Part shown: positions 49,205-64,000 of the stretch, piece by piece
Position numbering within the stretch: the stretch's first letter is position 1
Layout of the letters: each line of letters starts with the position of its first letter
NCBI GenBank assembly: GCA_963807235.1
Contig: CAWEBF010000023.1
Location: 15,693-79,692 of the forward strand
Reading direction: 5' to 3'
DNA length: 64,000 nt
From: an uncultured Acidobacteriota bacterium
GTDB taxonomy: Bacteria; Acidobacteriota; Vicinamibacteria; Vicinamibacterales; UBA2999
Made by a program: the position numbers and the translations under genes
Notes under the pieces: generated by a model
What the model saw: the letters and a program-made list of their open reading frames with translations, nothing else
Told to the model about the DNA's origin: nothing
Database searches by the model: none

Positions 49205-50305
49205 TCAGCGCTTCAAGGTCACGCGCTGCACCCGCCAGTTGCACATCTCGCCCACCAGCAGCTCGTTCTCGGAGCGGCAGTCGATCGAGTTGGCGACGCC
49301 AAACTCCTTGGGCAGCTTGCCGGCGGACCCGAAGCGGCCCACGACTTTGCCGTCCAGCTGCACCTTGTAGATCGTGGCGTCGTCCATGCCGCTCTGGTCC
49401 CCCACATGCGACACGTAGAGATACTGCGTGGCGCCAGTGGTCATGCACAACGCCACGGGCGTGCCCACGCCGCCGAATTCCGATTTGAAGGCGCCATCGG
49501 CGTCGAAGACCTGGATGCGTTTGTTGCCCATGTCCGCGGCGTACACGTTGCCCTGCGCGTCGATCGCCAGAGCCTTCACACCGCTGAACTGGCCGGGGCC
49601 CGACCCGGTCGAACCCCATTGCCTGATGAAGCGGCCGTCCTTGTCGAACTTGGCGACGCGGTTGGTGGTGCCCACGCCGTCGGCCACGTAGATGTTGCCG
49701 GCACGGTCCCAGGCCACGTCAGTCGGCTGGCTGAACGTCGAGCCCGGAATTCCCGATCCGGGCGGAGGCGCGGGCGCTCCGCCGGCCCGACCGCCGCCCG
49801 CGGCTGCCCCTGCGGCCGGGGCTCCACCGGCCGGCGGCGCGGCGGGACGGACCGCGATGGCCTCGGGTTTCCGGCCGAGCACCAGCACCACCCGGCCCTG
49901 GCCGTCGAACTTCACCACTTGATTGGCCGACTGATCGATGGTCCAGACGTTGTCCTGCGGATCGACACGCAGTCCAATCGCGGTGTTGAAGCCGTAGACG
50001 TCCTGACCCAGCTCCCGCAGGAACTTGCCCCCCGAGTCGAACTCGAACAACCGGGAGCCGCCCCGATAGAACGTGCGGTTGTCGCCCAGTGTGGCGTAGG
50101 GATGCCCGGTCCGGGTGTAGACGAAGATGCGTCCCTGCGAGTTGCGGCCGACGCCGCCCACCTCGCCAAGGTAGATGCTGGCCGGCGTTCGCAGCAGGTC
50201 GGCGTTGGCGTCGAAGGCCAGCTCCGGAACCGTTCCCTGTGCCAGCATCGCCGCGCCCTGCACGAGAGCGAACGACAGAACGAGAGCCGTAATCAAGCGT
50301 CGCAT
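49205..50305 (-). CDS. Secreted NHL-repeat protein (peptidyl-alpha-hydroxyglycine alpha-amidating lyase-like)
   Basis: PTDVAWD..GNIYVADG, RVAKFD, WGSTGSGPGQF and NKRIQVFD. Confidence 0.85.
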   Translation of the reverse strand: MRRLITALVLSFALVQGAAMLAQGTVPELAFDANADLLRTPASIYLGEVGGVGRNSQGRIFVYTRTGHPYATLGDNRTFYRGGSRLFEFDSGGKFLRELGQDVYGFNTAIGLRVDPQDNVWTIDQSANQVVKFDGQGRVVLVLGRKPEAIAVRPAAPPAGGAPAAGAAAGGGRAGGAPAPPPGSGIPGSTFSQPTDVAWDRAGNIYVADGVGTTNRVAKFDKDGRFIRQWGSTGSGPGQFSGVKALAIDAQGNVYAADMGNKRIQVFDADGAFKSEFGGVGTPVALCMTTGATQYLYVSHVGDQSGMDDATIYKVQLDGKVVGRFGSAGKLPKEFGVANSIDCRSENELLVGEMCNWRVQRVTLKR

Positions 50306-50317
50306 GGTCGTGGACCT

Positions 50318-51397
50318 CTAGTTCGTGCTGGTGCGCGTAGCCGCGGGCTTCAGTCGAATCTTCTGCGACCGCCAGTCGTTGATCTCGGCGGTGTAGAGGA
50401 CGTCGGGGTCGCGGCAGTCGATCTGGTGAGTGGTGGCGAACTCTCCAGGCGCCTTGCCGCCGCGGCCGAACTTGCCGACGATGGTGCCGTCGAGCTCCAT
50501 CTTGTAGATCTCGCCGGTGAACTCCGCCGCCGCCGCCGGAGCGCTGTCGGGCCACGAGTTGGAGACGTAGAGGTACTGCTTGCCCGGATTCTTCGGCCCG
50601 GGCCCGCCCGACACGCACACCGCCCACGGGTTGCCCACGTTCGGGTAGTTGGCCTTCCAGTTCAGATCGTTGTCCAGCACCTGGACGCGCTGGTTGCCAC
50701 GGTCGCCCACGTAGACGTTGCCCTGGAAGTCGGTGGCGATCGAGTGCGGCGTATTGAACTGGAGGTTGCCGTTGCCGCGCGTCCCCACGGCCTTCACGAA
50801 GCGGCCGTTCTTGTCGTACTTGACGACGCGCGCGTCGAAATAGCCGTCCGACACGAAGATGTTGCCCTGCTGATCGAAGGCCACGTCGGTCTGGCGGCCG
50901 AATGTGTACTTCCCGTTGCGGCCGTGATACACGCCGGCGCCCGGCATGTTCACCAGCATCTTGACCGGGTCCTCACGGCGGCCGATGGTCATCAGCACGC
51001 GCCCGTCGGGCGCGAACTTGACCAGCATGTCGGTGCCCTCGTCCACCGCCCAGATGTTGTCCTGGGCGTCCACGCGCACCGAATGTGCGAAGGCGAAGCC
51101 GTAGTTGTTACGTCCGATCTCGCGGATGAACTGGCCCTGCGGCGAGTACTCGAAGAGCCGCGTCTCGTAGGCCCGGTGGTAGATGTAGACGTTGCCCTTC
51201 GAGTTGGTGGCGATGCCCATGTTCTCGCCGGTGTAGATGCCGGGCGGGTTCTTGAAGAAGTCGGGCACCACTTCGTGCGGGATCACCGGCACGTTGGTGG
51301 CGGTGGCCCGGTTCTGCGCCGCCACGGGGGCCACGCGCTGAGACACCAGCCCGACGAGCATGGACACGGCGATAGCGAGACCAAACCAGCGTTTCAT
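50318..51397 (-). CDS. Secreted NHL-repeat protein (PAL-like), paralogue of the downstream gene
   Basis: FAHSVRVD, TDVAFD..GNIFVSDGY, PHSIA and NQRVQV; RBS GGAGGAG. Confidence 0.85.
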   Translation of the reverse strand: MKRWFGLAIAVSMLVGLVSQRVAPVAAQNRATATNVPVIPHEVVPDFFKNPPGIYTGENMGIATNSKGNVYIYHRAYETRLFEYSPQGQFIREIGRNNYGFAFAHSVRVDAQDNIWAVDEGTDMLVKFAPDGRVLMTIGRREDPVKMLVNMPGAGVYHGRNGKYTFGRQTDVAFDQQGNIFVSDGYFDARVVKYDKNGRFVKAVGTRGNGNLQFNTPHSIATDFQGNVYVGDRGNQRVQVLDNDLNWKANYPNVGNPWAVCVSGGPGPKNPGKQYLYVSNSWPDSAPAAAAEFTGEIYKMELDGTIVGKFGRGGKAPGEFATTHQIDCRDPDVLYTAEINDWRSQKIRLKPAATRTSTN

Positions 51398-51442
51398 GAG
51401 CTCCTCCAGCAAAACCGACCGCACTCTATCACCACCGCCCTC

Positions 51443-51476
51443 CACTTTAGCCCTTTGCCTTTTGCCTTTTGCCTTC
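51443..51476. repeat. Heptamer tandem repeat (GCCTTTT-like)x4
   Basis: cacttta gcccttt gcctttt gcctttt gccttc. Confidence 0.8.
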
Positions 51477-51486
51477 GAGGCCGCGC

Positions 51487-52071
51487 TCAGTTCCCGCGGC
51501 CTCGACCCGGCCCCCCCTGGCGGTTTTGCTGCTGTTCGGTGGACGGCGGCACCACGCCCTTCAGACGCTGATACACCGTGCCGATGCCATACATCTCGTT
51601 GCCGTGCTCCAGCACGGCGCTGAGAATGACCGCCCTGGCCCTGGGGCCGCCCCGGCCGCCCGTCACCATCTCGACGGCCGACTGATCGGTCAGCGACGCA
51701 AACGCCTCGTCGCAGAGGACGAACGAGTCGGCGAGGGCCTTCACCACGGCCGCCTTGGTGGTCGCCGTCTGCTCCAGGTTGTTGCCCTGATTCGGATTCG
51801 GAACGCCCCTGGCCTGCGCGCACTGGCCGTACTGAAAGTTCGCCACGTGCCCCCAGAGCTGCCCGTAGCCGCGGATCTCGTTCGTCGGCTTGAAGGCGTA
51901 GTCCGCCTCAGACAGCTTGTCGGCCGACGCCACCAGCAGTCCCTTGATCCGGGCGTAGGCCGCCTGCATCCCCGCGGCCAGCCCGACAGGCTGCCCCCCG
52001 GGCCCTCCCTGCGCGTACGCGGCCGGGGCGACAAGCGACAAACAGACGACGAGACACACGAGACATTTCAT
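51487..52071 (-). CDS. Secreted DinB-family protein
   Basis: Y.FKPT..R..GQL.GH, H.NE.YG and YQRLKGVVPPST; signal peptide. Confidence 0.8.
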   Translation of the reverse strand: MKCLVCLVVCLSLVAPAAYAQGGPGGQPVGLAAGMQAAYARIKGLLVASADKLSEADYAFKPTNEIRGYGQLWGHVANFQYGQCAQARGVPNPNQGNNLEQTATTKAAVVKALADSFVLCDEAFASLTDQSAVEMVTGGRGGPRARAVILSAVLEHGNEMYGIGTVYQRLKGVVPPSTEQQQNRQGGPGRGRGN

Positions 52072-52075
52072 GGTT

Positions 52076-52621
52076 TCAGGCTCCCTTGGTTTGGATCAGG
52101 TCAGGATGATGCGTGCGGGCGTCCCACAGTTGGAGCACGGCGCCAACTGCCGCGTCCAGGTTCACGCCGCTCGTGTCGATGGTCAGCTCCGGATCCGACG
52201 GCGCTTCATACGGATCGCTGACGCCCGTGAATGAGCTGATCTCGCCGCGCCGCGCCTGCGCGTAAAGGCCCTTCGGATCGCGCCGTTCGCATTCGGCGAG
52301 CGGCGTCGAGACGTAGATTTCCAGGAACACCCGGCACATCGACCGCACGGTCCGGCGGGCCTCGGCGTACGGAGAAATCAGCGCACACAGCACCGTGACG
52401 CCATGGTGTTCGAGACGGCTTGCAAGGAAACCCACCCGCTGTACGTGGGCGTCGCGTTCGGCGCGACTGAATCCGGTAGGCGACAACGCGCGGACAGCGT
52501 CGCCGTCGAGAAGCTCTGTGGGAATCGCGTGAGCGTGCAGCGCGCGCTCGACCGCTGTGGCCAGCGTGCTCTTCCCCGCTCCGGAAAGGCCCGTGAACCA
52601 CAGCACCGCTGGCGCTCGCAT
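52076..52621 (-). CDS. cysC: Adenylyl-sulfate kinase
   Basis: WFTGLSGAGKST, LDGD, ISPY, RDPKGLY and FTGVSDPYE.P. Confidence 0.95.
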   Translation of the reverse strand: MRAPAVLWFTGLSGAGKSTLATAVERALHAHAIPTELLDGDAVRALSPTGFSRAERDAHVQRVGFLASRLEHHGVTVLCALISPYAEARRTVRSMCRVFLEIYVSTPLAECERRDPKGLYAQARRGEISSFTGVSDPYEAPSDPELTIDTSGVNLDAAVGAVLQLWDARTHHPDLIQTKGA

Positions 52622-52847: not shown

Positions 52848-53795
52848 ATGTTCGCGTTTGGTTCTACTTCCCCCGTCCGACGTGTGCCTGCCGCCGCCCG
52901 CGTGGGTGTCGCGGCGCTCGTTGTCTCTACAGTCGCCGCCAGCGCCCTGGTGTGGCTCGCCGGCTCGTCGAATCCCTTCACGCCCGCGGGCTACGTGGGC
53001 TACCTCACGCGAGGCGCCGTGTTCGGGCGCTCCTCGTTCTACGCCACGCAGCGCGGCCCCACCTCTCCCGGGCGCGGCTGGCTGCTGCGCGTCGCCAACG
53101 TCAGCGTGACGCCGTACACCTACTCCGACGACTTCGTGGGCGACGACGCCGTGCTGAGCCGCGACAACCTGATGATCGGGTTCAAGGTGCACACCGTCTG
53201 GCGCGTGGACGATCAGCGAGTGCCGCTCTTCATGGAGCGGTATAGCACCACGGTCACGAACGGTCGCACGGAAGATCACCCCGACGCCATCGTGAAGGTG
53301 GCTTACGGCAACTTCATCCGCGAGCCGCTGCGAACCTATGCGAGAGACGAGGTGCAACGGCGGAACGGTCTCGAAGTGAAAGACGCGCTGGTCGCGATCG
53401 GCGACGCCGTGCTGGCGCGCATCAGGGCCTACGCGCTGAACAGCCCCTTCGTCATCACCAGCGTGGTCGTGGGCAACGTGCAATACCCCGAGGAGATCGC
53501 CACGGCCGTGTCGAACAAGCTGGCGGCCACGCAGGTTCTGCAGCGCAAGGACACGGAAATCGAGATCGAGCGCAAGGAACGCACCAAACGTGAGGTGCAG
53601 GCGCAGGGCATCGCCAACGCCATGCAGATCATCCGCGGGCAGCTCAGCCCGCTCTACGTGCAGCACGAGGCCATCGAGGCGCAGAAGCAGATGGTCAACT
53701 CGCCCAACCACACCGTGGTCTACATTCCCGTGGGGCCTATGGGCGTGCCCGTGACGGCCACGATGACGGCCGACCAGGGAGCGGCCGCACGCTAG
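52848..53795 (+). CDS. SPFH/band-7/prohibitin-domain protein
   Basis: N-terminal TM, P.GYVGY, LSRDNL, P.EI..AV..K and EA.GIA coiled coil; RBS GGAGG. Confidence 0.85.
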   Translation: MFAFGSTSPVRRVPAAARVGVAALVVSTVAASALVWLAGSSNPFTPAGYVGYLTRGAVFGRSSFYATQRGPTSPGRGWLLRVANVSVTPYTYSDDFVGDDAVLSRDNLMIGFKVHTVWRVDDQRVPLFMERYSTTVTNGRTEDHPDAIVKVAYGNFIREPLRTYARDEVQRRNGLEVKDALVAIGDAVLARIRAYALNSPFVITSVVVGNVQYPEEIATAVSNKLAATQVLQRKDTEIEIERKERTKREVQAQGIANAMQIIRGQLSPLYVQHEAIEAQKQMVNSPNHTVVYIPVGPMGVPVTATMTADQGAAAR

Positions 53796-53878: not shown

Positions 53879-56420
<2,542 letters not shown>

Positions 56421-56429
56421 GCCGTTGCC

Positions 56430-56990
56430 GTGGGCGACCGCCAAGTCACGACACTCCTTCAGCGCGCATCGGCCGGCGACGATCAGGCTCGGGCCGCACT
56501 CTTCGACGTGCTGTACAGCGAGTTGCGGAAGCTGGCCGAGGCGGCGATGCGCCGGGAGCGGCCCGACCATACGCTGCAGCCCACGGCCCTGGTCCACGAG
56601 ACCTACGTCCGCCTGGCCGACGACAGCGGCCGCTTCGAGAACCGTGCCCACTTCTTCGGCGTCGCCGCCAGTGCGATGCGCCGCGTGCTCGTGGATCACG
56701 CGCGGGCACGCGGGGCACAGAAGCGGGGCGGAGGCGAGGCTTTCGTCGCCGTGGACAATCTCGACAACCTGCCGGGCGCGCCTCCAGGCACGGTGGACCT
56801 CGTGTCCCTGGACGATGCGCTTTCGAGGCTCTCGGTCCTCGATTCCAGGCAGGGGCGCGTGGTCGAGCTACGGTTCTTCGGGGGCCTGTCGGTGGAGGAA
56901 ACGGCCACCATCCTCGACCTGTCGCCCCGGACCGTCAAGCGCGAGTGGCAGATGGCCCGCGCCTGGCTGCGTCGCGAACTCGCTCAGTAG
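56430..56990 (+). CDS. ECF sigma factor, TIGR02999/ECF43 type
   Basis: VT.LL, LY.ELRKLA, HTLQPTALVHE.Y, NRAHFF, AMRRVLVDHAR, KRGG and ARAWL. Confidence 0.93.
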   Translation: MGDRQVTTLLQRASAGDDQARAALFDVLYSELRKLAEAAMRRERPDHTLQPTALVHETYVRLADDSGRFENRAHFFGVAASAMRRVLVDHARARGAQKRGGGEAFVAVDNLDNLPGAPPGTVDLVSLDDALSRLSVLDSRQGRVVELRFFGGLSVEETATILDLSPRTVKREWQMARAWLRRELAQ

Positions 56991-57000
56991 GACGTCTATT

Positions 57001-57037
57001 CCTTTTGCCTTTAGCCTTTAGCCTTTTGCCTTGTTTT
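57001..57037. repeat. Heptamer tandem repeat (CCTTTWG)x4 plus CCTTGTTTT
   Basis: ccttttg cctttag cctttag ccttttg ccttgtttt. Confidence 0.85.
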
Positions 57038-57081
57038 TCGACCTTGGCCCCTGGCGCCGGAATTTCTCGCCATGTCTGGGT

Positions 57082-57519
57082 ATGGACGAGGTGTGGCTGG
57101 TGGCCGACGACTTTCGATTGGACGGGCAGACGCGCGCGATGTTGGAGCGGTGGGTCCGCTCTTCGTCCTCGCAACAGCGGGCGGTCAGACGAAGCCGCAT
57201 CATCCTGGCGCTGGATGACGGCCTCTCGGTGACGGCCGTGTCGGCCCGAGAGGGCATCGGCCGGCGAACCGTTGCCGTGTGGAAACAGCGCTTCCTGTCG
57301 GAAGGCCCCGATTCGCTGCTGCGGGATCGTCCCGGCCGCGGGCGGCCAAAAGGCCGGCGGGCCGACGCGGTGGCGTCCATCCTGACGGCGACGGCCACGC
57401 CGCCGCCTGGCACGAGCCGCTGGACGTCGCGCGCGCTCGCCAAGCAGTTGGGCGTCAGCCACTCCACGGTGCTGCGCGTGTGGCGCGACGCCAGCATTGC
57501 TGACCTTCGCCGAAATTAG
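57082..57519 (+). CDS. IS630-like helix-turn-helix protein lacking the DDE catalytic domain
   Basis: RSRIIL, TVAVWKQRF..G...L.DRPGRGRP and RWTSRALAKQLGVSHSTV.RVWR; stops before any DDE region. Confidence 0.75.
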   Translation: MDEVWLVADDFRLDGQTRAMLERWVRSSSSQQRAVRRSRIILALDDGLSVTAVSAREGIGRRTVAVWKQRFLSEGPDSLLRDRPGRGRPKGRRADAVASILTATATPPPGTSRWTSRALAKQLGVSHSTVLRVWRDASIADLRRN

Positions 57520-57529
57520 AGCGCTCGCT

Positions 57530-57583
57530 TGGGCTCTGGGCTCTGGGCTCTGGCCAAAGCCTAGAGCCTAAAGCCTAAAGCCT
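57530..57583. repeat. Inverted heptamer arrays (TGGGCTC)x3 / (ARAGCCT)x4 forming a hairpin between convergent genes
   Basis: The two arrays are reverse-complementary when G-U pairs are allowed. Confidence 0.8.
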
Positions 57584-57591
57584 CCGACGGC

Positions 57592-58428
57592 CTAACGAGC
57601 GGAACAGGCCGTCGGATTCCAACCGGCCGCGCCGGGCAACTTCTTGAAATCGGAGCTCGTGAGGTGCGGCCGGGTGAAGTAGACCGGGTCCTCCACCCTG
57701 GTCGTCACCGTCAGCCACCGGTCGCCGTTCGGCAGCTCGTTCACGTCGAAATACTCGGTCACCGACGTCCGGTCGCTGTAGGGCGCGCCGTTCTTGCGCA
57801 CGTAGCCGCCGCGAAGGTGCGTGGTCGTCACCTTGAGGCCGCCGCCGCGGTTCTGGACGCCGCGGCCACCGGGGCCCAACTGCCACACCGCCACCGAGTG
57901 CCCCTGCCAGGTCGGCGTGGTTGGCGGCGTCGCGGCTGGGTCGAAGCGCAGGAGGCGCGTCTGGGTGCCGGCGTCGGTGTCGATCTGGAGCGTGTTGGCG
58001 TCGGGCCAGGTGATGTGGAGCCGGCCGGGAACGCGCATGATGTTGCCGGCGCCGTATGCGCGGCACTGCTCGCCGGCGGCTTCATCGCGCGCCGGATCCC
58101 AACTGTCGCCCACCTTGCGGCCCTCGGCGTTGAGCGGCAGCGTCTGGTAAGCGCCCTTTTTGGGCGTGACCATCCGAAATTTCCAGTCCTCGGTGATCAC
58201 GGACACCCAATAACCGGTCAAGTCGATGGGGGCAGCATCGCGCGGCGTCGTCGCCGTGCCCCGCCCGCGCCCCTGCGCCGCGGCGGTTGCCGCGATGCCG
58301 AGGCACGCGACCGCGAGGGCTAGCGAGGCTGCGCCTCGGACCAACGAGCAGGTAGGCTCCGCCTCGCTAGCGCAGTGTCTTCTTGCCCGCGCGTTCGCGC
58401 GGGCGTAGACCAAGTCCCGATCAGTCAA
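57592..58428 (-). CDS. Secreted conserved hypothetical protein
   Basis: Signal-like AASLALAVACLGIAATAAA; DLTGYWVSVITEDW, C.AYG, WQG.S and EDPVY; start position uncertain. Confidence 0.75.
   Translation of the reverse strand: MTDRDLVYARANARARRHCASEAEPTCSLVRGAASLALAVACLGIAATAAAQGRGRGTATTPRDAAPIDLTGYWVSVITEDWKFRMVTPKKGAYQTLPLNAEGRKVGDSWDPARDEAAGEQCRAYGAGNIMRVPGRLHITWPDANTLQIDTDAGTQTRLLRFDPAATPPTTPTWQGHSVAVWQLGPGGRGVQNRGGGLKVTTTHLRGGYVRKNGAPYSDRTSVTEYFDVNELPNGDRWLTVTTRVEDPVYFTRPHLTSSDFKKLPGAAGWNPTACSAR
58319..58372. repeat. REP-doublet-like inverted repeat inside the 5' end of a gene
   Basis: GCTAGCGAGGC...GCCTCGCTAGC, a perfect 11-bp arm with an inner GCCT/AGGC pair. Confidence 0.7.
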
Positions 58429-58816
58429 CGGCTTCGCCCGACCGCGCGCCCCAACTGAAACCGTCGAGCGGGCGCTTCAGGCTGACCATGAGCAGCCGGA
58501 ACTCGCCCGGCACCCGCGATGGCCGTCCGACGATCACGATCTGGTCGCCCACTCGCAGCGTCTCGCGGGTGATGCCCTGGCCGCCCAGCTGGCCGGTGCC
58601 GCTCCACTCCACCGCCCAGCGCTGCGGTACGCCCTTGTCGTCCGGCGCCTGGACGGTCACGAACGAGTGCGGGTTGCGGTAGACGAACTGGACCAGTTTG
58701 CCTTCGACCGTCACCTGTTTGGCCAGGTCGTAGGTGGCGCCGTAAGAGTGATGCGCACGCGTTGCCACCGGCAGCAGCAGCGCCACCGCGACACAGAGGC
58801 CGAGCCACATTCTCAT
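58421..58816 (-). CDS. DUF6152-like secreted protein
   Basis: Signal peptide ending ATRA, then HHSY...YD, G......NPHS and W.VE; RBS GGAGGAG. Confidence 0.8.
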   Translation of the reverse strand: MRMWLGLCVAVALLLPVATRAHHSYGATYDLAKQVTVEGKLVQFVYRNPHSFVTVQAPDDKGVPQRWAVEWSGTGQLGGQGITRETLRVGDQIVIVGRPSRVPGEFRLLMVSLKRPLDGFSWGARSGEAVD

Positions 58817-60759
58817 CGTCGTGTCTCCTCCAGGCTCCGATACACCGCCTCCACGAACATCGCCGTCGTCCACGGTCCCGTGGTCGACCCATAGCGGCCG
58901 TCGAAGTCCATCGTCGGCCGCGCCGCCTGTACCTGCGCCAGCGTCATCCCCTTGCCCTTCAGATCGCGCACGCGGTCGCGGATCATCGTCAACATGTTGC
59001 GGTACGACGCCACGTCGGCCGTGTCCCCGACGCGGCCGCGCGCCGGCACGATCCAGGTGCCGCCCTGCGAGCGGTACTCGGCCACCGCCAGATCCAGGAT
59101 CTTGTTCAAGCCGTCCAGCACTCCCTGGATGGTGCCGCCCTTCGCCAGGTCGATCACCGGATAGCTGATGGTCGAGAACAGGTTGCCGGCGCTGATCACC
59201 TCGGAGCGCCGGAAGTAGACGAAGCTGTCGCCGTCGGTGTTGGCGGCCGGCGCGTGGTGCATGATCACCGCTTCGCCGTTGAAATAGGCCGGCAGCTTGA
59301 AGAACTCGTCGAAGTAGGTGTCGGTCGGCCATGCCGCTTCCGGCATCGGCCGCCTGCTTGCCGGCCGGCGCGCTGATGCGGTTCAGCACGTTTTCGTGCG
59401 CGACGATCGACGCCTTCTGCCCGAGTGCGGTGACGGCGGTGCCAAACGCGGCCGTGCGCGGGAAGAAGCCGGCCGCCGACAGCTTCTCGTTGCCGCCGAC
59501 GTGCTCGGCATCGGCGCTGGTGTTCATGATGAAGCGCAGCGGCTTCGGTGAGCCCGGCGAGGTGGTGACTGCGTTGATGTAGGGGCTGGACCAGCCCCAC
59601 GTGCCCGGGCAGTTGACGCCGGCACAGGCGTTGGCCATCGGCGGTGTCACGGTCGCGTTGGCCAGCTGGCCGAGCGCCGCGAGCACCTTGTCGGACATCG
59701 CCGCCGCGCCGGTGTTGACCAGCAGCACGCCTTCGGCGCCAACCGACGCCGTGATGTTCACGCCGTCGGCGACCAGCATGAAGACGTTGCCCTGCACCGG
59801 CAGCACGTGCACCTGGCCGTCCTTGGGGCTCTGGTCGGCGATGCCTTCTCGACGGCGACCGCCGATTTGGACGACGGCACGCGCAGCGTCCGCGCCGCCG
59901 CGGGATCCGCGAGCGCCGCCCTGTATTCGGGGTAGAGCGTGGCAACGCCGCCGCGCACGGCTGCTTCGGGCACCCACGGCTCGTTCTTCAGCAAGTCGCC
60001 GAGGGCCGTGTTCTGGCCCGGCAGGAAGTGCGGCACCCAGTGCCGATCGGTGCCGCCGTTCTCGGCGAACGCCGACGCGCTGCACGTCTCGTTCTGCGTC
60101 GTCCCGGTCAGGTCGGAGACGTAAGTCGTGGAGTGCACATACGGCTCGTCCATGTAGACGGGGTCGTCCACCACGCTGGTGATCGTCAGGATGTCGTCGT
60201 GGCGGGTGATGAACTCCGTCATCGTGTACAGGTCGCTCGTCTGCGGCCCGCCGCGCTTCAGGTAGCCGTCCTTGAAGTGCGTGGTCGTGATCTTCAGCGT
60301 GTTGCCGACCCACTGGCCGGTCGAGAAACCGGTCCAGGTGTGCGGCGCATACGCGGGCGGGTGCGGCCGGCCGTCCATGAAGATCGGCCGGTCCAGCGAG
60401 CGCATGAACTGGATGTGGTAGACGCTCACGTCGCGCGTCAGCGGATCCTGCTCCTTGAGGATGCGCGCGCCGCCCAGGCCGCGCCACTGGTGCGGCGCGG
60501 AGTGCGGGCGGCACTGATACTCGGGCGTGCCCCAGATCGACTCGGCCGACGTATCGGCGCGCAGGCGGCCGGCGTCGTTGAACGGGATGCCCAGGTAGTC
60601 GCCGAGCGGCGGCTGCCCGGAGGTGTCTTCCTCCCACGTCTCGAGCGTCCACTCGCCCGAGATGTCGGGTGGCGCCTGCGGCCGCGGCGGCTGCGCGGAC
60701 GGACGCGCCGCCGTCAGGAGCGGCGGGTGCAATCGCCAGCAGCGCAACGACCGCGTCAT
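58813..60759 (-). CDS. Secreted fusion of a hypothetical N-domain and a degenerate metallo-beta-lactamase/cyclase-like domain (several indels)
   Basis: N-domain DISGEW..GDYLGIP..QCRPH..W.GFS.G.W; C-domain VQGNVFML, NTSADAEHVGGN, ANTDGDS and VPARG. Confidence 0.75.
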
Positions 60760-60763
60760 CGTG

Positions 60764-63034
60764 CTAATTCGCCAGCGGATCGGGCCGCAGCTGGAACTTC
60801 ACCAGCTTGCCCTTGGTGCCCTTGCCGCCCTCGATGTGCCACACGAAGTGGGTGCCGTAGTTCGCGTACAGCGCGCGGCCCTTCCAGCCGCCGTTGGGAT
60901 CGTCGATGCGGCCGTCGAGCCCGCGCGAGTAGAAGCCGAGCGGATACGGCACGCGCAGCGTGACCCACCGCCGCGTCTGCGGATCGAGCACGAGGAGCGA
61001 GTCGGAGTTCGATCCGGTGGCCATCGGCTTGTTGGCGCCGAGCCCGAGGATGTTGTGCTGGTCCACCCAGTTGTAATAGTGGAAGTCGGCCGGGATGTTG
61101 GTGCCCTTCAGCTTCGGGCCCGGCGTCTGATACAGCGTCCAGCCCTCGGGGCACTCGCTGCCGTCGGCCTTGCGCGGCCCGGTGATCGCCTTGCACTTGC
61201 GGCGGTCGAAGCTGGCCATGTGGCTGCTGGCCGCCAGCGCCGTCCACACCACGCCGTTGGTGTCGATGTCCACGCCGCGCGGATCGAAGCCGGGCTCAGG
61301 CACCTTGTAGATCTCGGTGATGCACGACTGCGGCGGGTTCTTGCCGCGATCGAGGCGCACCAGATAACCGGGATAGCGCTCCGAGACGCCCCACACCGAG
61401 TCGTCCACCGGGCTCGGGATCACGGCGTAGAGGCTGAAGCTGACGAGCGTGTCGAGCTTCGGATTGGGTCCGCCGGCCGGGGCTGGGGCGCCGCCGCCCG
61501 CGGCCCGGCCACCTGGGGCCGGCGCACCGCCGGTATCACCCGAATACAGAATCGACTCGCCGCGCGCCGTGATCTGGTTCCACGGCGGCGCCGTGATCTT
61601 GCCGTCGCCGTTGGTGTCGACCACCTGGCCGCACCAGCCGACCGCCTTCTGCTCGTCCTTGGTCTGGTCGAAGATCTTGGTGTCGATCCAGCCGAAGATC
61701 GGGCCGGTCAGCTCGTTGAAGTACAGCGTCTCGTTGGCGTCGTTGTCGAACTGCAGGTGGTGCGTCGCGTAGCAGGTGTCGATCAGCACGAACTGCCGCG
61801 TCTTCGGGTCGTAGAACGACGCCTGGCGGCCGCTCTGGCGCAGCGGGAACCACGACGCGAAGCTGTTCTTGCCGGGTCGATGCACCACGCCGCGTTCGCG
61901 TTCGGACGGATCTTCGACGTCATCCACACGCGGCCCTTGCTGTCCAGCATCGCGTTGTGCGGATCCGCCGGGTTGTAGGGCGGGTTCGCCCACAGGTGCT
62001 CCTCGCCCCAGTGCAGCGACGGGCGGTTCGGCTGCGGGAACCGCGACGGCACCTCGGCGCGCGGCGCGCGCGTCGGGATCTCGATCTCCTCGGTGCGATG
62101 CGTCTTCGGGTCGACCATCGTCAGCATGCCGTGGCCGGCCGAGACGGCGTAGACCGGGCCGCCGGCGTTGACGGTCGGGCCGGTTCTTGTCGGTCGAGAT
62201 CTCGTCGTGCATGAACGACTTGTCCGTGCCCCAGTCCCACAGCGTCAGCACCACGTTGCGCTCGACGCCGGTCGGACGCGGCGGCGTCGGCGGCACCTCG
62301 CCCTTGGCGACGCGCTCGGTCCAGTCGGAGTAGGTCTTGAGCGCGCGCGGCGGGCCCTGGTTGGTCAGCACGCCGTACATCGAGTTGCCGCGGACGCCGG
62401 TGCCGAGCCGCCACTCCCACGCCTCGGCGTGCGTCTTCAGCTCGGGCTTCGCCTTGAGCACGTGGTCGACGCTGCGCGTCAGCTGGTTGCCGAGCTGATG
62501 GCAGAAGTTGCAGTCGGACTTGAGCGAGTTGACCCAGTGGTTCTGCGACTGCATCGCCGTGCCGATGCCGTTGCCCTGCGGTCCCGTGCCGGTGCCCGGG
62601 AACTCGCTCGCCGCCGGCGGCTCGAGCAGCGACAGCCAGTAGTCGCCCGGATAGACCTTCGCGGCTTCCTGCGGCGAGGCCGCGGCGCTGGCGCGCAGCG
62701 TCACCGACGCGGCGCCGGGCTTGAGCTGCTGCTTCTGCGAATCGGCCAGCCCATAGCCGCGCACCCACACGCTGTAGCTCGCGCCCGGCAGCTCGGGCAG
62801 CATGAAGCGGCCGCGGTCGTCGGTGACGACGATCTTGATGAAGTTGGTCGGCAGGTCCTTGGTCTCGGCAATGACCCAGACGCCGGCCTCGGGCCCGTTG
62901 GCGCCCTGGACGACGCCGCTGATGAAGCCGGTGGCCGCCGGCGGCGCGCCGCGTCCCTGCCCGCTGACCGTCACCACCGCGGCCACGAGCGCCGCGAACG
63001 CCACCGAAATCGCCACCTTCAGATGTCGCCTCAT
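60764..63034 (-). CDS. Secreted protein: carboxypeptidase-regulatory-like domain + CxxCH heme-c motif + beta-propeller (indels near 62180 and 61880)
   Basis: EAGVWVIAET..KIVVTDD.GRF..PELP, CNFCHQ, THHLQF, PRGVDID.NGVVW and LRVPYPLGFY.RG.DGRIDD. Confidence 0.8.
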   Translation of the reverse strand: MRRHLKVAISVAFAALVAAVVTVSGQGRGAPPAATGFISGVVQGANGPEAGVWVIAETKDLPTNFIKIVVTDDRGRFMLPELPGASYSVWVRGYGLADSQKQQLKPGAASVTLRASAAASPQEAAKVYPGDYWLSLLEPPAASEFPGTGTGPQGNGIGTAMQSQNHWVNSLKSDCNFCHQLGNQLTRSVDHVLKAKPELKTHAEAWEWRLGTGVRGNSMYGVLTNQGPPRALKTYSDWTERVAKGEVPPTPPRPTGVERNVVLTLWDWGTDKSFMHDEISTDKNRPDRQRRRPGLRRLGRPRHADDGRPEDASHRGDRDPDARAARRGAVAVPAAEPPVAALGRGAPVGEPALQPGGSAQRDAGQQGPRVDDVEDPSERERGVVHRPGKNSFASWFPLRQSGRQASFYDPKTRQFVLIDTCYATHHLQFDNDANETLYFNELTGPIFGWIDTKIFDQTKDEQKAVGWCGQVVDTNGDGKITAPPWNQITARGESILYSGDTGGAPAPGGRAAGGGAPAPAGGPNPKLDTLVSFSLYAVIPSPVDDSVWGVSERYPGYLVRLDRGKNPPQSCITEIYKVPEPGFDPRGVDIDTNGVVWTALAASSHMASFDRRKCKAITGPRKADGSECPEGWTLYQTPGPKLKGTNIPADFHYYNWVDQHNILGLGANKPMATGSNSDSLLVLDPQTRRWVTLRVPYPLGFYSRGLDGRIDDPNGGWKGRALYANYGTHFVWHIEGGKGTKGKLVKFQLRPDPLAN

Positions 63035-63041
63035 CGCTCTT

Positions 63042-63082
63042 CCTTTTGCCTTTGGCCTTTTGCCTTTAGCCTTGTTTTGCCT
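63042..63082. repeat. Heptamer tandem repeat (CCTTTNG)x4 plus CCTTGTTTT
   Basis: ccttttg cctttgg ccttttg cctttag ccttgtttt; near copy of 57001-57037. Confidence 0.85.
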
Positions 63083-63114
63083 CGCTGAGCCCCGCGAGCG
63101 AGAATTCTACTCCC

Positions 63115-64000
63115 TTGCCCCCGCCCGACGCCCTCCGGCCCCGCTCTCGGACGTCACCGTCCTCGACCCCACCACGGCGCTGGCGGGCCCCTATGCCACC
63201 CTGCTCCTGGCCGGGCTGGGCGCCCGGGTCATCAAGATCGAAAACCCTGTCGGCGGCGACAGCTGCCGCCACAACCCGCCCTACGTCGGCGCCGGGGGCC
63301 TGCGCCTGACCCGGGAATCCCCCGACGACATGTCGGTGTCGTCGCTCAACCGCCTCCGCAACAAGCTGGGCGTCACGCTGAACCTCAAGCACCCGGCCGC
63401 GCGCGACGTCTTCCTCGATCTGGCGCGGCGCGCCGACGTGCTGGTCGAGAACTTCAGCCGCGGCGTGCTGGACCGGCTGGGCGTCGGCTACGCCTTCGTC
63501 CACGAAGTGAACCCGAAGCCTGGTGTATTGCTCGATCAGCGGGTTCGGGTCGACCGGCGGCGCCGACGACGGCAAGGCGATGGACACCATCATCCAGGCG
63601 CTGAGCGGCGTGATGTACACCTCGGGGCAGGCCGGCGACCCGCCGGTGCGCGTGGGCTTCCCCATCGCCGATCTGGCGTCGCCGCTCTTCGGCGTCATCG
63701 GCGTGCTGGCGGCGCTGCACCAGGCGCGCGCGACCGGGCGTGGGTCAGCACGTGGACGTCTCGATGCTCGGCGCGCTGACCTCGCTCATCACGGACGAGC
63801 CGTTCGACGCGCTGCGGCCGTTCGGCGTGCCGACGCGCACCGGCCCGACCATGCCGCGCCTGGCGCCCTTCGGCGTCTACGGCGCCACCGACGGCTACGT
63901 GGCGATCTGCGCCTTCACCGATCCGTTCGCGCACGCGCTCTTCCGCGCGATGGGCGAGCCCGGCCTCAGAGGCGATCCGCGGTTCGGCGACGCGCGACAT
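63115..64000 (+). CDS. CoA-transferase family III (CaiB/BaiF), frameshifted, runs off the right edge
   Basis: L..V.VLD....LAGPYAT..LA.LGA.VIKIE, NK.GVTLNLK, ADVLVENF, CSISGFG and D.IIQA.SG. Confidence 0.88.

Follow-up and report, generated by a model that had tools for sequence, protein, structure and literature searches.

Four genes lie on the minus strand over 57592..63034 of the window, by which we mean the whole 64,000-nt stretch of DNA analysed. An earlier note had read them as one periplasmic metallo/redox complex, consisting of a heme c propeller protein, a degenerate metallo-beta-lactamase (MBL) fusion, a His-His protein and a relative of the MBL fusion's N-terminal domain. Is this set of four the conserved unit? 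The comparisons described below answer that it is not: genes 2-4 constitute an unstudied operon that recurs in other genomes and whose products are likely exported.

Locus layout and assembly state

The dense, co-oriented arrangement was confirmed. Genes 1 and 2 are separated by a 4-nt gap, genes 2 and 3 overlap by ATGA, and genes 3 and 4 overlap by 8 nt. The family III CoA-transferase reported to diverge from the cluster is likewise present (63084..64000, plus strand, start approximate), frameshifted and cut by the window end. Between 57000 and 63300, neither a sigma-70-like promoter nor a terminator was found above chance.

In the assembly, genes 1 and 2 are frameshifted, with switches near 62180, 61875, 60740, 59845 and 59350. 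The two in gene 1, near 62176 and 61869-61881, compensate each other, and the remaining three fall in gene 2. We considered real frameshifts or recoding and rejected both, since a 94%-identical genome of the same genus is broken at other places and short-read contigs of relatives reveal indels at 59842, 61869, 61881 and 62176 (the sequencing runs come from relatives only, with a share of at most 0.20). The interruptions are therefore most likely long-read assembly errors. In its 5' end, gene 4 carries an in-frame insertion (58319..58410, no strand assigned) of a roughly 90-nt repeat that forms two hairpins and is dispersed, with 139 blastn matches in the own genome. It is missing from the same-genus genome and coincides with a read-depth peak and loose ends. 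An alternative TTG start of gene 4 lies at 58344.

The signal peptides proposed for all four products were confirmed with a qualification: that of gene 2 falls into two different frames in the window. By a hydropathy rule (not SignalP), an N-terminal hydrophobic stretch occurs in 109 of 120 gene-2, 105 of 120 gene-4 and 114 of 120 gene-1 homologues, and gene 3 has an A-x-A site.

Domain composition of the four proteins

Gene 1 (60764..63034, minus strand) encodes a predicted exported protein with a CarboxypepD_reg-like domain, a monoheme c domain and a seven-bladed propeller. The CNFCHQ motif and beta-propeller seen earlier were both recovered, the CNFCH heme c motif at 62498..62512 (minus strand) and the propeller, following a helical domain, in the model of an intact homologue. 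Exactly one CxxCH is kept in 120 of 120 homologues, and C175, C178, H179 and M219 are present in 30 of 30 divergent ones; from this conservation, M219 is likely the distal heme ligand. The protein thus has the marks of a c-type cytochrome (CxxCH, predicted export, a candidate distal ligand and maturation genes, the genome holding three PF01578 genes of the heme c maturation system). Among solved structures, the propeller comes closest in fold to virginiamycin B lyase Vgb (2z2n; Foldseek E 5e-12; Z 24.2, rmsd 2.5, 290 residues aligned), which leads the second match by 4 Z units. However, identity is 13%, the gene-1 profile had no match to any Vgb chain at E <= 1, and gene 1 adds the signal peptide, the CarboxypepD_reg-like and heme c domains and four more invariant Cys. 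The profile had no match among PDB sequences, and among the papers listed by our literature search on heme c, seven-bladed and Vgb proteins, none deals with this family. By analogy, gene 1 would combine in one chain the division of labour between thiocyanate dehydrogenase, whose seven-bladed propeller houses a metal centre in its tunnel, and its single-heme acceptor cytochrome c552 (PMC9456337). Thiocyanate dehydrogenase is not among the structural matches listed for gene 1, though, and the likeness is one of architecture, implying neither copper nor a sulfur substrate.

Gene 2 (58813..60759, minus strand) fuses an unnamed beta-rich domain, here called domain A, to an MBL fold, and its unbroken homologues have a length of about 650 aa. 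An AlphaFold model of one of them (P0001; pLDDT 89.6, pTM 0.89) has a nine-strand meander as its N-domain. The C-domain matches chlorothalonil dehalogenase Chd (6uxu; Z 27.0, rmsd 3.0, 266 residues aligned) and a Burkholderia MBL-superfamily protein (8d2z; Z 25.8, profile E 1e-18) best, C-terminal helices included, at 21% and 18% identity, respectively. In a viral structure library, MBL matches were the only ones below E 0.001. Literature searches gave unrelated papers for 8D2Z and, for Vicinamibacterales, MBL and paralogues, nothing relevant among the papers listed.

The described reduction of HxHxDH to SADAEH was located at 59501..59518 (minus strand). The Zn1 positions H116/H118/H196 read S/D/N in the window, and each of them holds His in 0 of 120 orthologues, which rejects an active di-zinc MBL hydrolase. 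The Zn2 positions D120/H121/D-or-N221/H263, mapped by sequence alignment rather than superposition, read E/H/N/R and are complete in just 2 of 120 (D221 in 16, H263 in 2, Arg at the His263 position in 117), which likewise rejects a mono-zinc enzyme of the Chd type. According to PMC12784990, Chd employs one zinc together with His117, His257, Asp116 and Asn216; gene 2 departs from it by the Arg at His263, the absent Zn1 ligands, the domain A fusion and a Cys-pair insertion. Neither site is complete in 118 of 120 orthologues. The quinoprotein relay system zinc metallohydrolase TIGR04559 was discarded as an identity, each of two in-frame pieces reaching 14 bits against a cut-off of 280. Gene decay is rejected: over 66 pairs, the dead MBL has a median pN/pS of 0.32 and domain A one of 0.27. 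The MBL of gene 2 is thus a predicted pseudo-enzyme kept under purifying selection, in agreement with the non-catalytic role foreseen for it. A relevant parallel is PqsE of Pseudomonas aeruginosa, whose MBL fold aligns with that of gene 2 at Z 21.0 and whose partner-binding role needs no catalysis, as reported in PMC9600345. PqsE differs in that it is still an enzyme and has a transcription factor as its partner. Gene 2, by contrast, lacks the ligands, encodes a product with predicted export and would have other partners.

Gene 4 (57592..58428, minus strand) encodes domain B, a paralogue of domain A with two conserved Cys. The relationship to the gene-2 N-domain, suspected from shared motifs, was confirmed (28% over 201 aa, E 4e-15; hhalign 99.4%). 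About 225 domains of this family, at a median identity of about 29%, are encoded in the own genome. A and B are sister clades in a tree of 195 barrel domains (FastTree support 0.97), and within that tree both occur solely beside a module MBL (30 of 30 A, 23 of 23 B), by which we mean an MBL of the A/MBL/B kind; more than 100 paralogues stand without any MBL. The gene-4 profile matched no PDB sequence, its relatives hit no Pfam family at a meaningful E-value, and its Atlas neighbours are unnamed clusters. For the whole gene-2 model, no solved structure was listed over domain A, the lists being filled by the MBL. Since no solved structure matched, "ligand-binding barrel" is an inference from the strand pattern of the model. 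The domains may be calycin-type barrels (avidin, FABP, lipocalin): modelled domain A shares with these an N-terminal G-x-W strand and an up-and-down series of nine strands, but it has no Pfam, PDB-sequence or listed fold match, and it differs by a long lid rich in Trp and Pro and by two paired Cys that are conserved.

Gene 3 (58421..58816, minus strand) encodes a DUF6152 protein (PF19649; E 1.6e-20, 73.4 bits against a Pfam gathering cut-off of 27), and its best 30 Atlas matches are all DUF6152. With the cleavage site read by rule, the mature protein is predicted to start with His-His (58753-58748) directly after the A-x-A site, and an NPH motif follows at 58675-58667. Among 78 DUF6152 matches in the own genome, 69 have a small-x-small site followed by His-His (the other 9 are truncated or lack it), and all 69 copies with a readable N-terminus keep the NPH histidine. 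The mature N-terminal His-His that the earlier note had singled out is thus invariant, and a third His fits a predicted Cu/Ni site. A first-residue His plus further conserved His is also what distinguishes histidine-brace and N-terminal-His metalloproteins in sequence; DUF6152 likely binds Cu or Ni via His1, His2 and the NPH histidine, and this small protein is a candidate for a metal site of a new type built on N-terminal histidines. Closest in kind are the signal-strapping N-terminal-His metalloproteins (DUF4198, DUF6702, anglerases), which share the signal peptide followed by His and more conserved His; in PMC12537917, Ni, Co or Cu binding is shown for such families. DUF6152, which is not named in the main text or five supplementary files of that paper, differs by its His-His and NPH, its length of about 110 aa and its tie to the barrel family. 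The gene-3 profile had no match among PDB sequences. No paper naming DUF6152 or PF19649 was found in the literature searched, a scope that leaves most subscription papers and bioRxiv supplements outside.

Which genes travel together and which metal sites they keep

We compared 23 orthologous loci, which come from Acidobacteriota and Gammaproteobacteria. In 15 of them, the A-MBL fusion is followed by DUF6152 and then by B; of the 8 exceptions, 2 are cut by contig ends, 4 lack a DUF6152 orthologue between MBL and B, and 2 lack B. Around close gene-3 relatives, partly in the same genomes, the order recurs in 15 of 20 regions. Gene 1 behaves differently. It stands directly upstream of genes 2-4 in 1 of 23 loci, that of the same-genus genome (20 of the loci have at least 1 kb upstream), and in 0 of the 20 gene-3 regions; conversely, domain A or a module MBL lies downstream in 0 of 80 gene-1 loci, 61 of which offer at least 600 nt of room. 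A CoA-transferase divergent from gene 1 was seen in two loci only (L093 and L161). Co-occurrence elsewhere was found for genes 2-4, and beyond the closest relatives it was not found for gene 1 and the CoA-transferase. With its monoheme c domain and seven-bladed propeller, gene 1 belongs to a family of its own and is only a local neighbour of genes 2-4. It would be an independent periplasmic protein, likely an oxidoreductase, that joined the operon in this lineage.

The own genome (6.25 Mb) contains about 30 A/MBL/B modules in several orders and fusions. DUF6152 sits between MBL and B in 2 of them and mostly pairs with other barrel paralogues. Module MBLs were found in 14 of 40 relatives, at 3-33 each. 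Across 79 module loci, the recurrent neighbours were TonB-type receptors (17), PQQ dehydrogenases (9), MFS transporters (7), an esterase (5) and GSDH (5), with tannase, LigB, an aromatic hydroxylase and a P450 as single cases. Because flanks vary from locus to locus and catabolic genes are common in the carrier genomes, this neighbourhood is weak evidence of function.

We compared 152 module MBLs, leaving out of the count 23 matches below 140 bits, 17 short or frameshifted sequences, 13 duplicates, 5 without downstream room and 2 with a ligand gap. Both sites are intact in 33, Zn2 only (the mono-zinc site of the Chd kind) in 51, Zn1 only in 7 and neither in 61, which makes the clade a natural series from di-zinc via mono-zinc to metal-free proteins. 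At least 23-25 metal-site changes are required on the tree. Given these counts, catalysis is dispensable for the module, the fold being kept.

Loss of both sites is more frequent in MBLs followed by DUF6152 (36 of 58) than in the others (25 of 94), in a DUF6152-positive set that was enriched by sampling. The trend vanishes on 6 independent pairs (sign test, median p 1), so that a replacement of the lost zinc site by DUF6152 is not supported. Since, moreover, 3 of the 58 MBLs with DUF6152 behind them are fully intact and dead MBLs occur without it, including in four close relatives that lack an adjoining DUF6152 orthologue (L096-L098 and L150), the suggestion of a partner-complemented MBL is unsupported.

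Possible functions of the module

The reading that we tentatively favour, at somewhat less than even confidence, is that exported A, B, pseudo-MBL and DUF6152 assemble in the periplasm into a module that captures or processes small organic compounds. Two related predicted barrels would be held on the zinc-less MBL fold; mutual binding of A, B and MBL is suggested because their neighbourhood is fixed, in any order, and A is fused to MBL. The parent form may be a zinc hydrolase of small organic, probably aromatic, compounds that enter through TonB receptors, and the diversified barrels would be its subunits for ligand recognition. In the subtype of the window, the MBL would persist as a scaffold or as a pocket for binding, and any metal site would reside on DUF6152. 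A complex prediction of a gene-2 homologue, gene 4, gene 3 as the scored partner and zinc gave a score of 0.00, the mark being 0.32; this score, which does not cover the gene 2-gene 4 pair, counts neither for nor against the assembly.

Alternatively, the pseudo-MBL and the barrels might share their regulation in the periplasm yet act singly, each binding or sensing its own ligands or partner proteins with no stable complex. MBL folds can indeed work by protein contact with catalysis dispensable, as for PqsE-RhlR in PMC9600345, and the many barrels without MBL would fit. The restriction of A and B to module MBLs, the frequent A-MBL fusion and the absence of a receptor or regulator as fixed neighbour render it rather unlikely. 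Metal trafficking, with DUF6152 as a Cu/Ni chaperone or store that loads periplasmic metalloenzymes from a docking scaffold of barrels and pseudo-MBL, is unlikely as well. It draws on the invariant His-His and NPH histidine, on Ni/Co/Cu binding with weak or no oxidase/peroxidase activity in DUF4198 and DUF6702 (PMC12537917), and on gene 1, whose propeller with conserved H276, H359, H424, H425, H603 and H731 could be a client. Yet none of the annotated neighbour clusters present in at least 5 of the 79 module loci is a family of Cu/Ni transporters, regulators or chaperones, DUF6152 is missing from most modules, and 78 DUF6152 proteins and about 225 barrels this divergent point to many different ligands and not to a single pool of metal.

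That a histidine-brace copper centre on DUF6152 took the place of the lost zinc, so that a former hydrolase would now work as an oxidase or peroxygenase, we consider improbable. The excess of metal-less MBLs before DUF6152, and the union of both in the window subtype, speak for it; the independent pairs, the sampling, the intact MBLs before DUF6152 and the dead ones without it speak against it. As for a single metallo/redox complex of all four proteins with the gene-1 heme as electron acceptor, there is the tight co-orientation in the window and the same-genus genome, and three database proteins corresponding to genes 1, 2 and 4 share a longest contig of 67,635 nt, which hints at another four-gene locus. 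Against this stand the separate distributions given above, since gene 1 and the CoA-transferase are absent beside genes 2-4 beyond the closest relatives. In addition, the three other gene-1 copies of the own genome have no module alongside, its second A-MBL fusion, DUF6152 and B set has no gene 1, and several genomes with numerous copies of gene 1 gave no match to the module MBL (15 versus 0 in G009). The complex is hence very improbable and, as a general system, largely refuted; the "redox" label, having rested mainly on gene 1, does not carry over to the conserved unit.

Extending the favoured reading of a periplasmic module, the barrels of a genome might each pair with either a zinc MBL head for hydrolysis or a DUF6152 His-His Cu/Ni head for oxidation, as a mix-and-match enzyme platform; here, the MBL would serve as scaffold and a new N-terminal tri-histidine site would do the chemistry. 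We regard this as a quite doubtful conjecture. If true, soil Acidobacteriota and related Gammaproteobacteria would possess in it a catabolic arsenal that ranks among their largest uncharacterised ones. Barrels, DUF6152 proteins and module MBLs together already amount to several hundred genes without described function in this one genome.

The conserved part of the locus

Genes 1-4 lie on the minus strand (63034 to 57592), and the earlier note's picture of four co-oriented, abutting or overlapping genes was confirmed. The heme-c propeller gene (gene 1, 60764-63034) is separated by a 4-nt gap from gene 2 (58813-60759), which encodes domain A fused to an MBL fold; gene 2 shares an ATGA overlap with the DUF6152 gene (gene 3, 58421-58816), which in turn overlaps the domain B gene (gene 4, 57592-58428) by 8 nt. 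Judged by codon bias, gene 1 switches frame near 62180 and returns near 61875, and gene 2 switches near 60740, 59845 and 59350. These breaks are most likely long-read errors, because G001, a genome of the same genus that matches at 94% identity along 5.6 kb and also carries genes 1-4 and the divergent CoA-transferase, is broken at other places; because indels appear at 59842, 61869, 61881 and 62176 in short-read contigs of relatives; and because intact homologues exist for gene 2 (P0001, 650 aa, 95% to the gene-2 N-terminal part) and gene 1 (P0392, 754 aa). Structure models were built on these two homologues.

The earlier note had read all four genes as one undescribed periplasmic metallo/redox complex. 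Searches of the own genome by tblastn and iterated HMMs returned ~225 ORFs of the family of domain A and gene 4, 78 DUF6152 matches and ~30 A/MBL/B modules of varying order and fusion. Gene 1 has four copies there, only the window's copy being adjoined by a module, and the genome's second copy of the fused A-MBL, DUF6152 and B arrangement has no gene 1 alongside. Of 79 loci fetched with P0001, 23 had an orthologue of domain A (300 bits or more); Vicinamibacterales, Terriglobia, Solibacteraceae and Gammaproteobacteria were among their sources. A DUF6152 orthologue was next in 18 of these, B in 19 and all three in 15; gene 1 was upstream in one (G001), with at least 1 kb of upstream sequence present in 20. 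Around close gene-3 relatives, the trio was found in 15/20 regions and gene 1 in 0/20, some genomes being shared with the 23-locus set. Neither domain A nor a module MBL lay downstream of gene 1 in any of 80 metagenome gene-1 loci (61 with at least 600 nt of room), and in 19 gene-1 regions from other genomes a module was 0.3-2.4 kb away in two, not co-oriented and abutting as in the window. The CoA-transferase was divergent from gene 1 only in the loci L093 and L161. Because the trio recurs in orthologous loci, with gene 1 and the CoA-transferase seldom alongside, the conserved unit is genes 2-4. The earlier interpretation thus stands in part: the loss of MBL ligands holds, the inclusion of gene 1 in one unit does not.

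Several loci vary this layout. L099 and L100 have A-MBL and DUF6152 without B after, with IS21-type genes downstream in L099. In the close subtype L096, L097, L098 and L150, A-MBL is followed by B and then by a DUF6152-barrel fusion in place of free DUF6152, with DUF6644 pairs, GSDH and esterase upstream. In L094 (2084-7799), the genes immediately before the module, in its orientation, encode a DUF1592-type cytochrome and DUF1552 and ankyrin proteins.

Just behind the gene 4 start codon, a ~90-nt dispersed repeat with two hairpins (58319-58410; 139 blastn matches in the own genome, about 80 near full length) forms an in-frame insertion, giving either 28 additional N-terminal residues or a restart at TTG 58344; G001 lacks it at this position. 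Tandem purine-rich 7-mer-like short repeats (AAAGGC-type) lie in the intergenic gaps 63040-63076, 57520-57582 and 57000-57030, and a short HTH_23/HTH_32 ORF (57031-57519, plus strand), like the N-terminal part of a transposase, converges on the end of gene 4.

A metal-less MBL fold and the neighbouring families

In the P0001 model (pLDDT 89.6, pTM 0.89) the N-domain has nine strands, and the MBL domain is most similar to chlorothalonil dehalogenase (Chd; Z 27.0), followed by 8d2z (Z 25.8). Since Chd uses a single zinc ion, whose ligands are Asp116, His117, Asn216 and His257 (PMC12784990), the two zinc sites were scored separately. In the window, the seven ligand positions of gene 2 are occupied by S, D, E, H, N, N and R. 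In the conventional MBL numbering, His occupies positions 116, 118 and 196 in 0/120 gene-2 orthologues, D221 is Asp in 16/120, and H263 is His in 2/120 and Arg in 117/120. Neither site is complete in 118/120, in agreement with the degenerate motif (SADAEH) noted earlier. Both sites are kept in 33 of 152 module MBLs; 51 retain Zn2 alone, 7 retain Zn1 alone, and 61 have neither. On the tree this takes a minimum of 23-25 changes of state.

Decay of the gene-2 MBL domain was rejected: it is maintained, since the median pN/pS is 0.32 versus 0.27 for domain A (66 pairs, 12 orthologues; uncorrected proportions) and four Cys are invariant. The earlier note offered a "partner-complemented" MBL as one option, and both sites are indeed lost in 36/58 MBLs with DUF6152 next versus 25/94 without. 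Complementation by DUF6152 is nevertheless not supported, because the DUF6152-positive set was enriched by sampling, the sign test on six independent pairs gave a median p of 1, and the MBL is fully intact beside DUF6152 in 3/58. For the window's own subtype it keeps a low probability. In a diverse MBL alignment, structural glycines and C-terminal helices are best conserved rather than metal ligands, which suggests that the fold may serve as a scaffold or binding surface. Such a role would resemble PqsE, whose partner binding is independent of catalysis (PMC9600345).

Sequence and profile comparison identified gene 4 as a paralogue of domain A. Of 195 domains of this barrel family in the own genome, the 30 A and 23 B domains form sister clades and occur only beside module MBLs; the other 142 share ~29% identity with one another, and 56 of them adjoin DUF6152. 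D..G.W, two Cys, DGR, G.S.G.W and DP are common to all. Neither Pfam models nor PDB sequences matched the family; its strand pattern makes it a candidate calycin-like barrel. DUF6152 and barrel pairs, in either order, form at least 34 two-gene clusters in the own genome, with a few fusions. A Cys-His/Asn-Glu-Gly motif stands at the end of many lone barrels but is missing from A and B.

Gene 3 is a DUF6152 protein by profile match. A small-x-small motif followed by His-His stands at the N-terminus in 69/78 own-genome matches, all 69 with the NPH histidine, and H1, H2, P28 and H29 are invariant in 38/38 aligned relatives. Such a terminus recalls what is called a histidine brace, and gene 3 likely binds metal. 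N-terminal-His exported proteins of DUF4198 and DUF6702 have been shown to bind Ni, Co and Cu, their oxidase activity being weak or absent (PMC12537917); DUF6152 is unnamed in the text and five supplements of that source. DUF6152 occurred in 14/151 genomes sampled from the phylum and 0/14 control genomes; the system is therefore patchy, with heavy expansion in a few lineages. The subset of literature searched yielded no paper on DUF6152 or its module.

Gene 1 as a separate heme-c propeller family

The P0392 model (pLDDT 87.9) shows an N-terminal CarboxypepD_reg-like sandwich, present in 65/65 family members, then a helical CxxCH domain and a seven-bladed propeller closest in fold to Vgb lyase (Z 24.2). 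CxxCH proved conserved in 120/120 homologues. Met219 of this domain is invariant, and H276, H424, H425, H359, H603 and H731 are kept in 25-30 of 30 divergent homologues. Cytochrome c assembly proteins are encoded in the own genome. Thiocyanate dehydrogenase and its cytochrome (PMC9456337) offer an analogy by which gene 1 would probably be an oxidoreductase of the periplasm, with a His-based propeller site and a fused electron acceptor. The family comprises 7,252 of 7,997 scored candidates and occurs in 30/41 genomes searched, some without any module MBL match.

Neighbourhood and proposed function

Related loci come from Vicinamibacterales and other Acidobacteriota. Among 50 selected annotated neighbours, a subset of all, the families found in at least 5/79 module loci included TonB-type receptors (17), PQQ dehydrogenases (9), MFS transporters (7), esterase (5) and GSDH (5); single loci carry tannase, LigB, an aromatic hydroxylase or P450. 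These neighbours fit the import and degradation of small organic compounds, weakly so because module flanks vary between loci. On our best reading, which we hold tentatively and at somewhat short of even chances, A, the pseudoMBL and B would assemble in the periplasm and handle small organic ligands, the His-His DUF6152 protein would be an accessory metal-binding subunit of this assembly, and gene 1 would be a lineage-specific neighbour of genes 2-4.

Elsewhere in the window, two tandem exported NHL-repeat propeller genes (49205-50305 and 50318-51823, minus strand) have a DinB-family gene (51487-52071) and an APS kinase (52076-52621) upstream. An SPFH/band 7 gene lies at 52848-53795, and a putative Ser/Thr kinase-like gene with a TPR-like tail (54006-56990, plus strand) stands beside an apparent ECF-type sigma factor.
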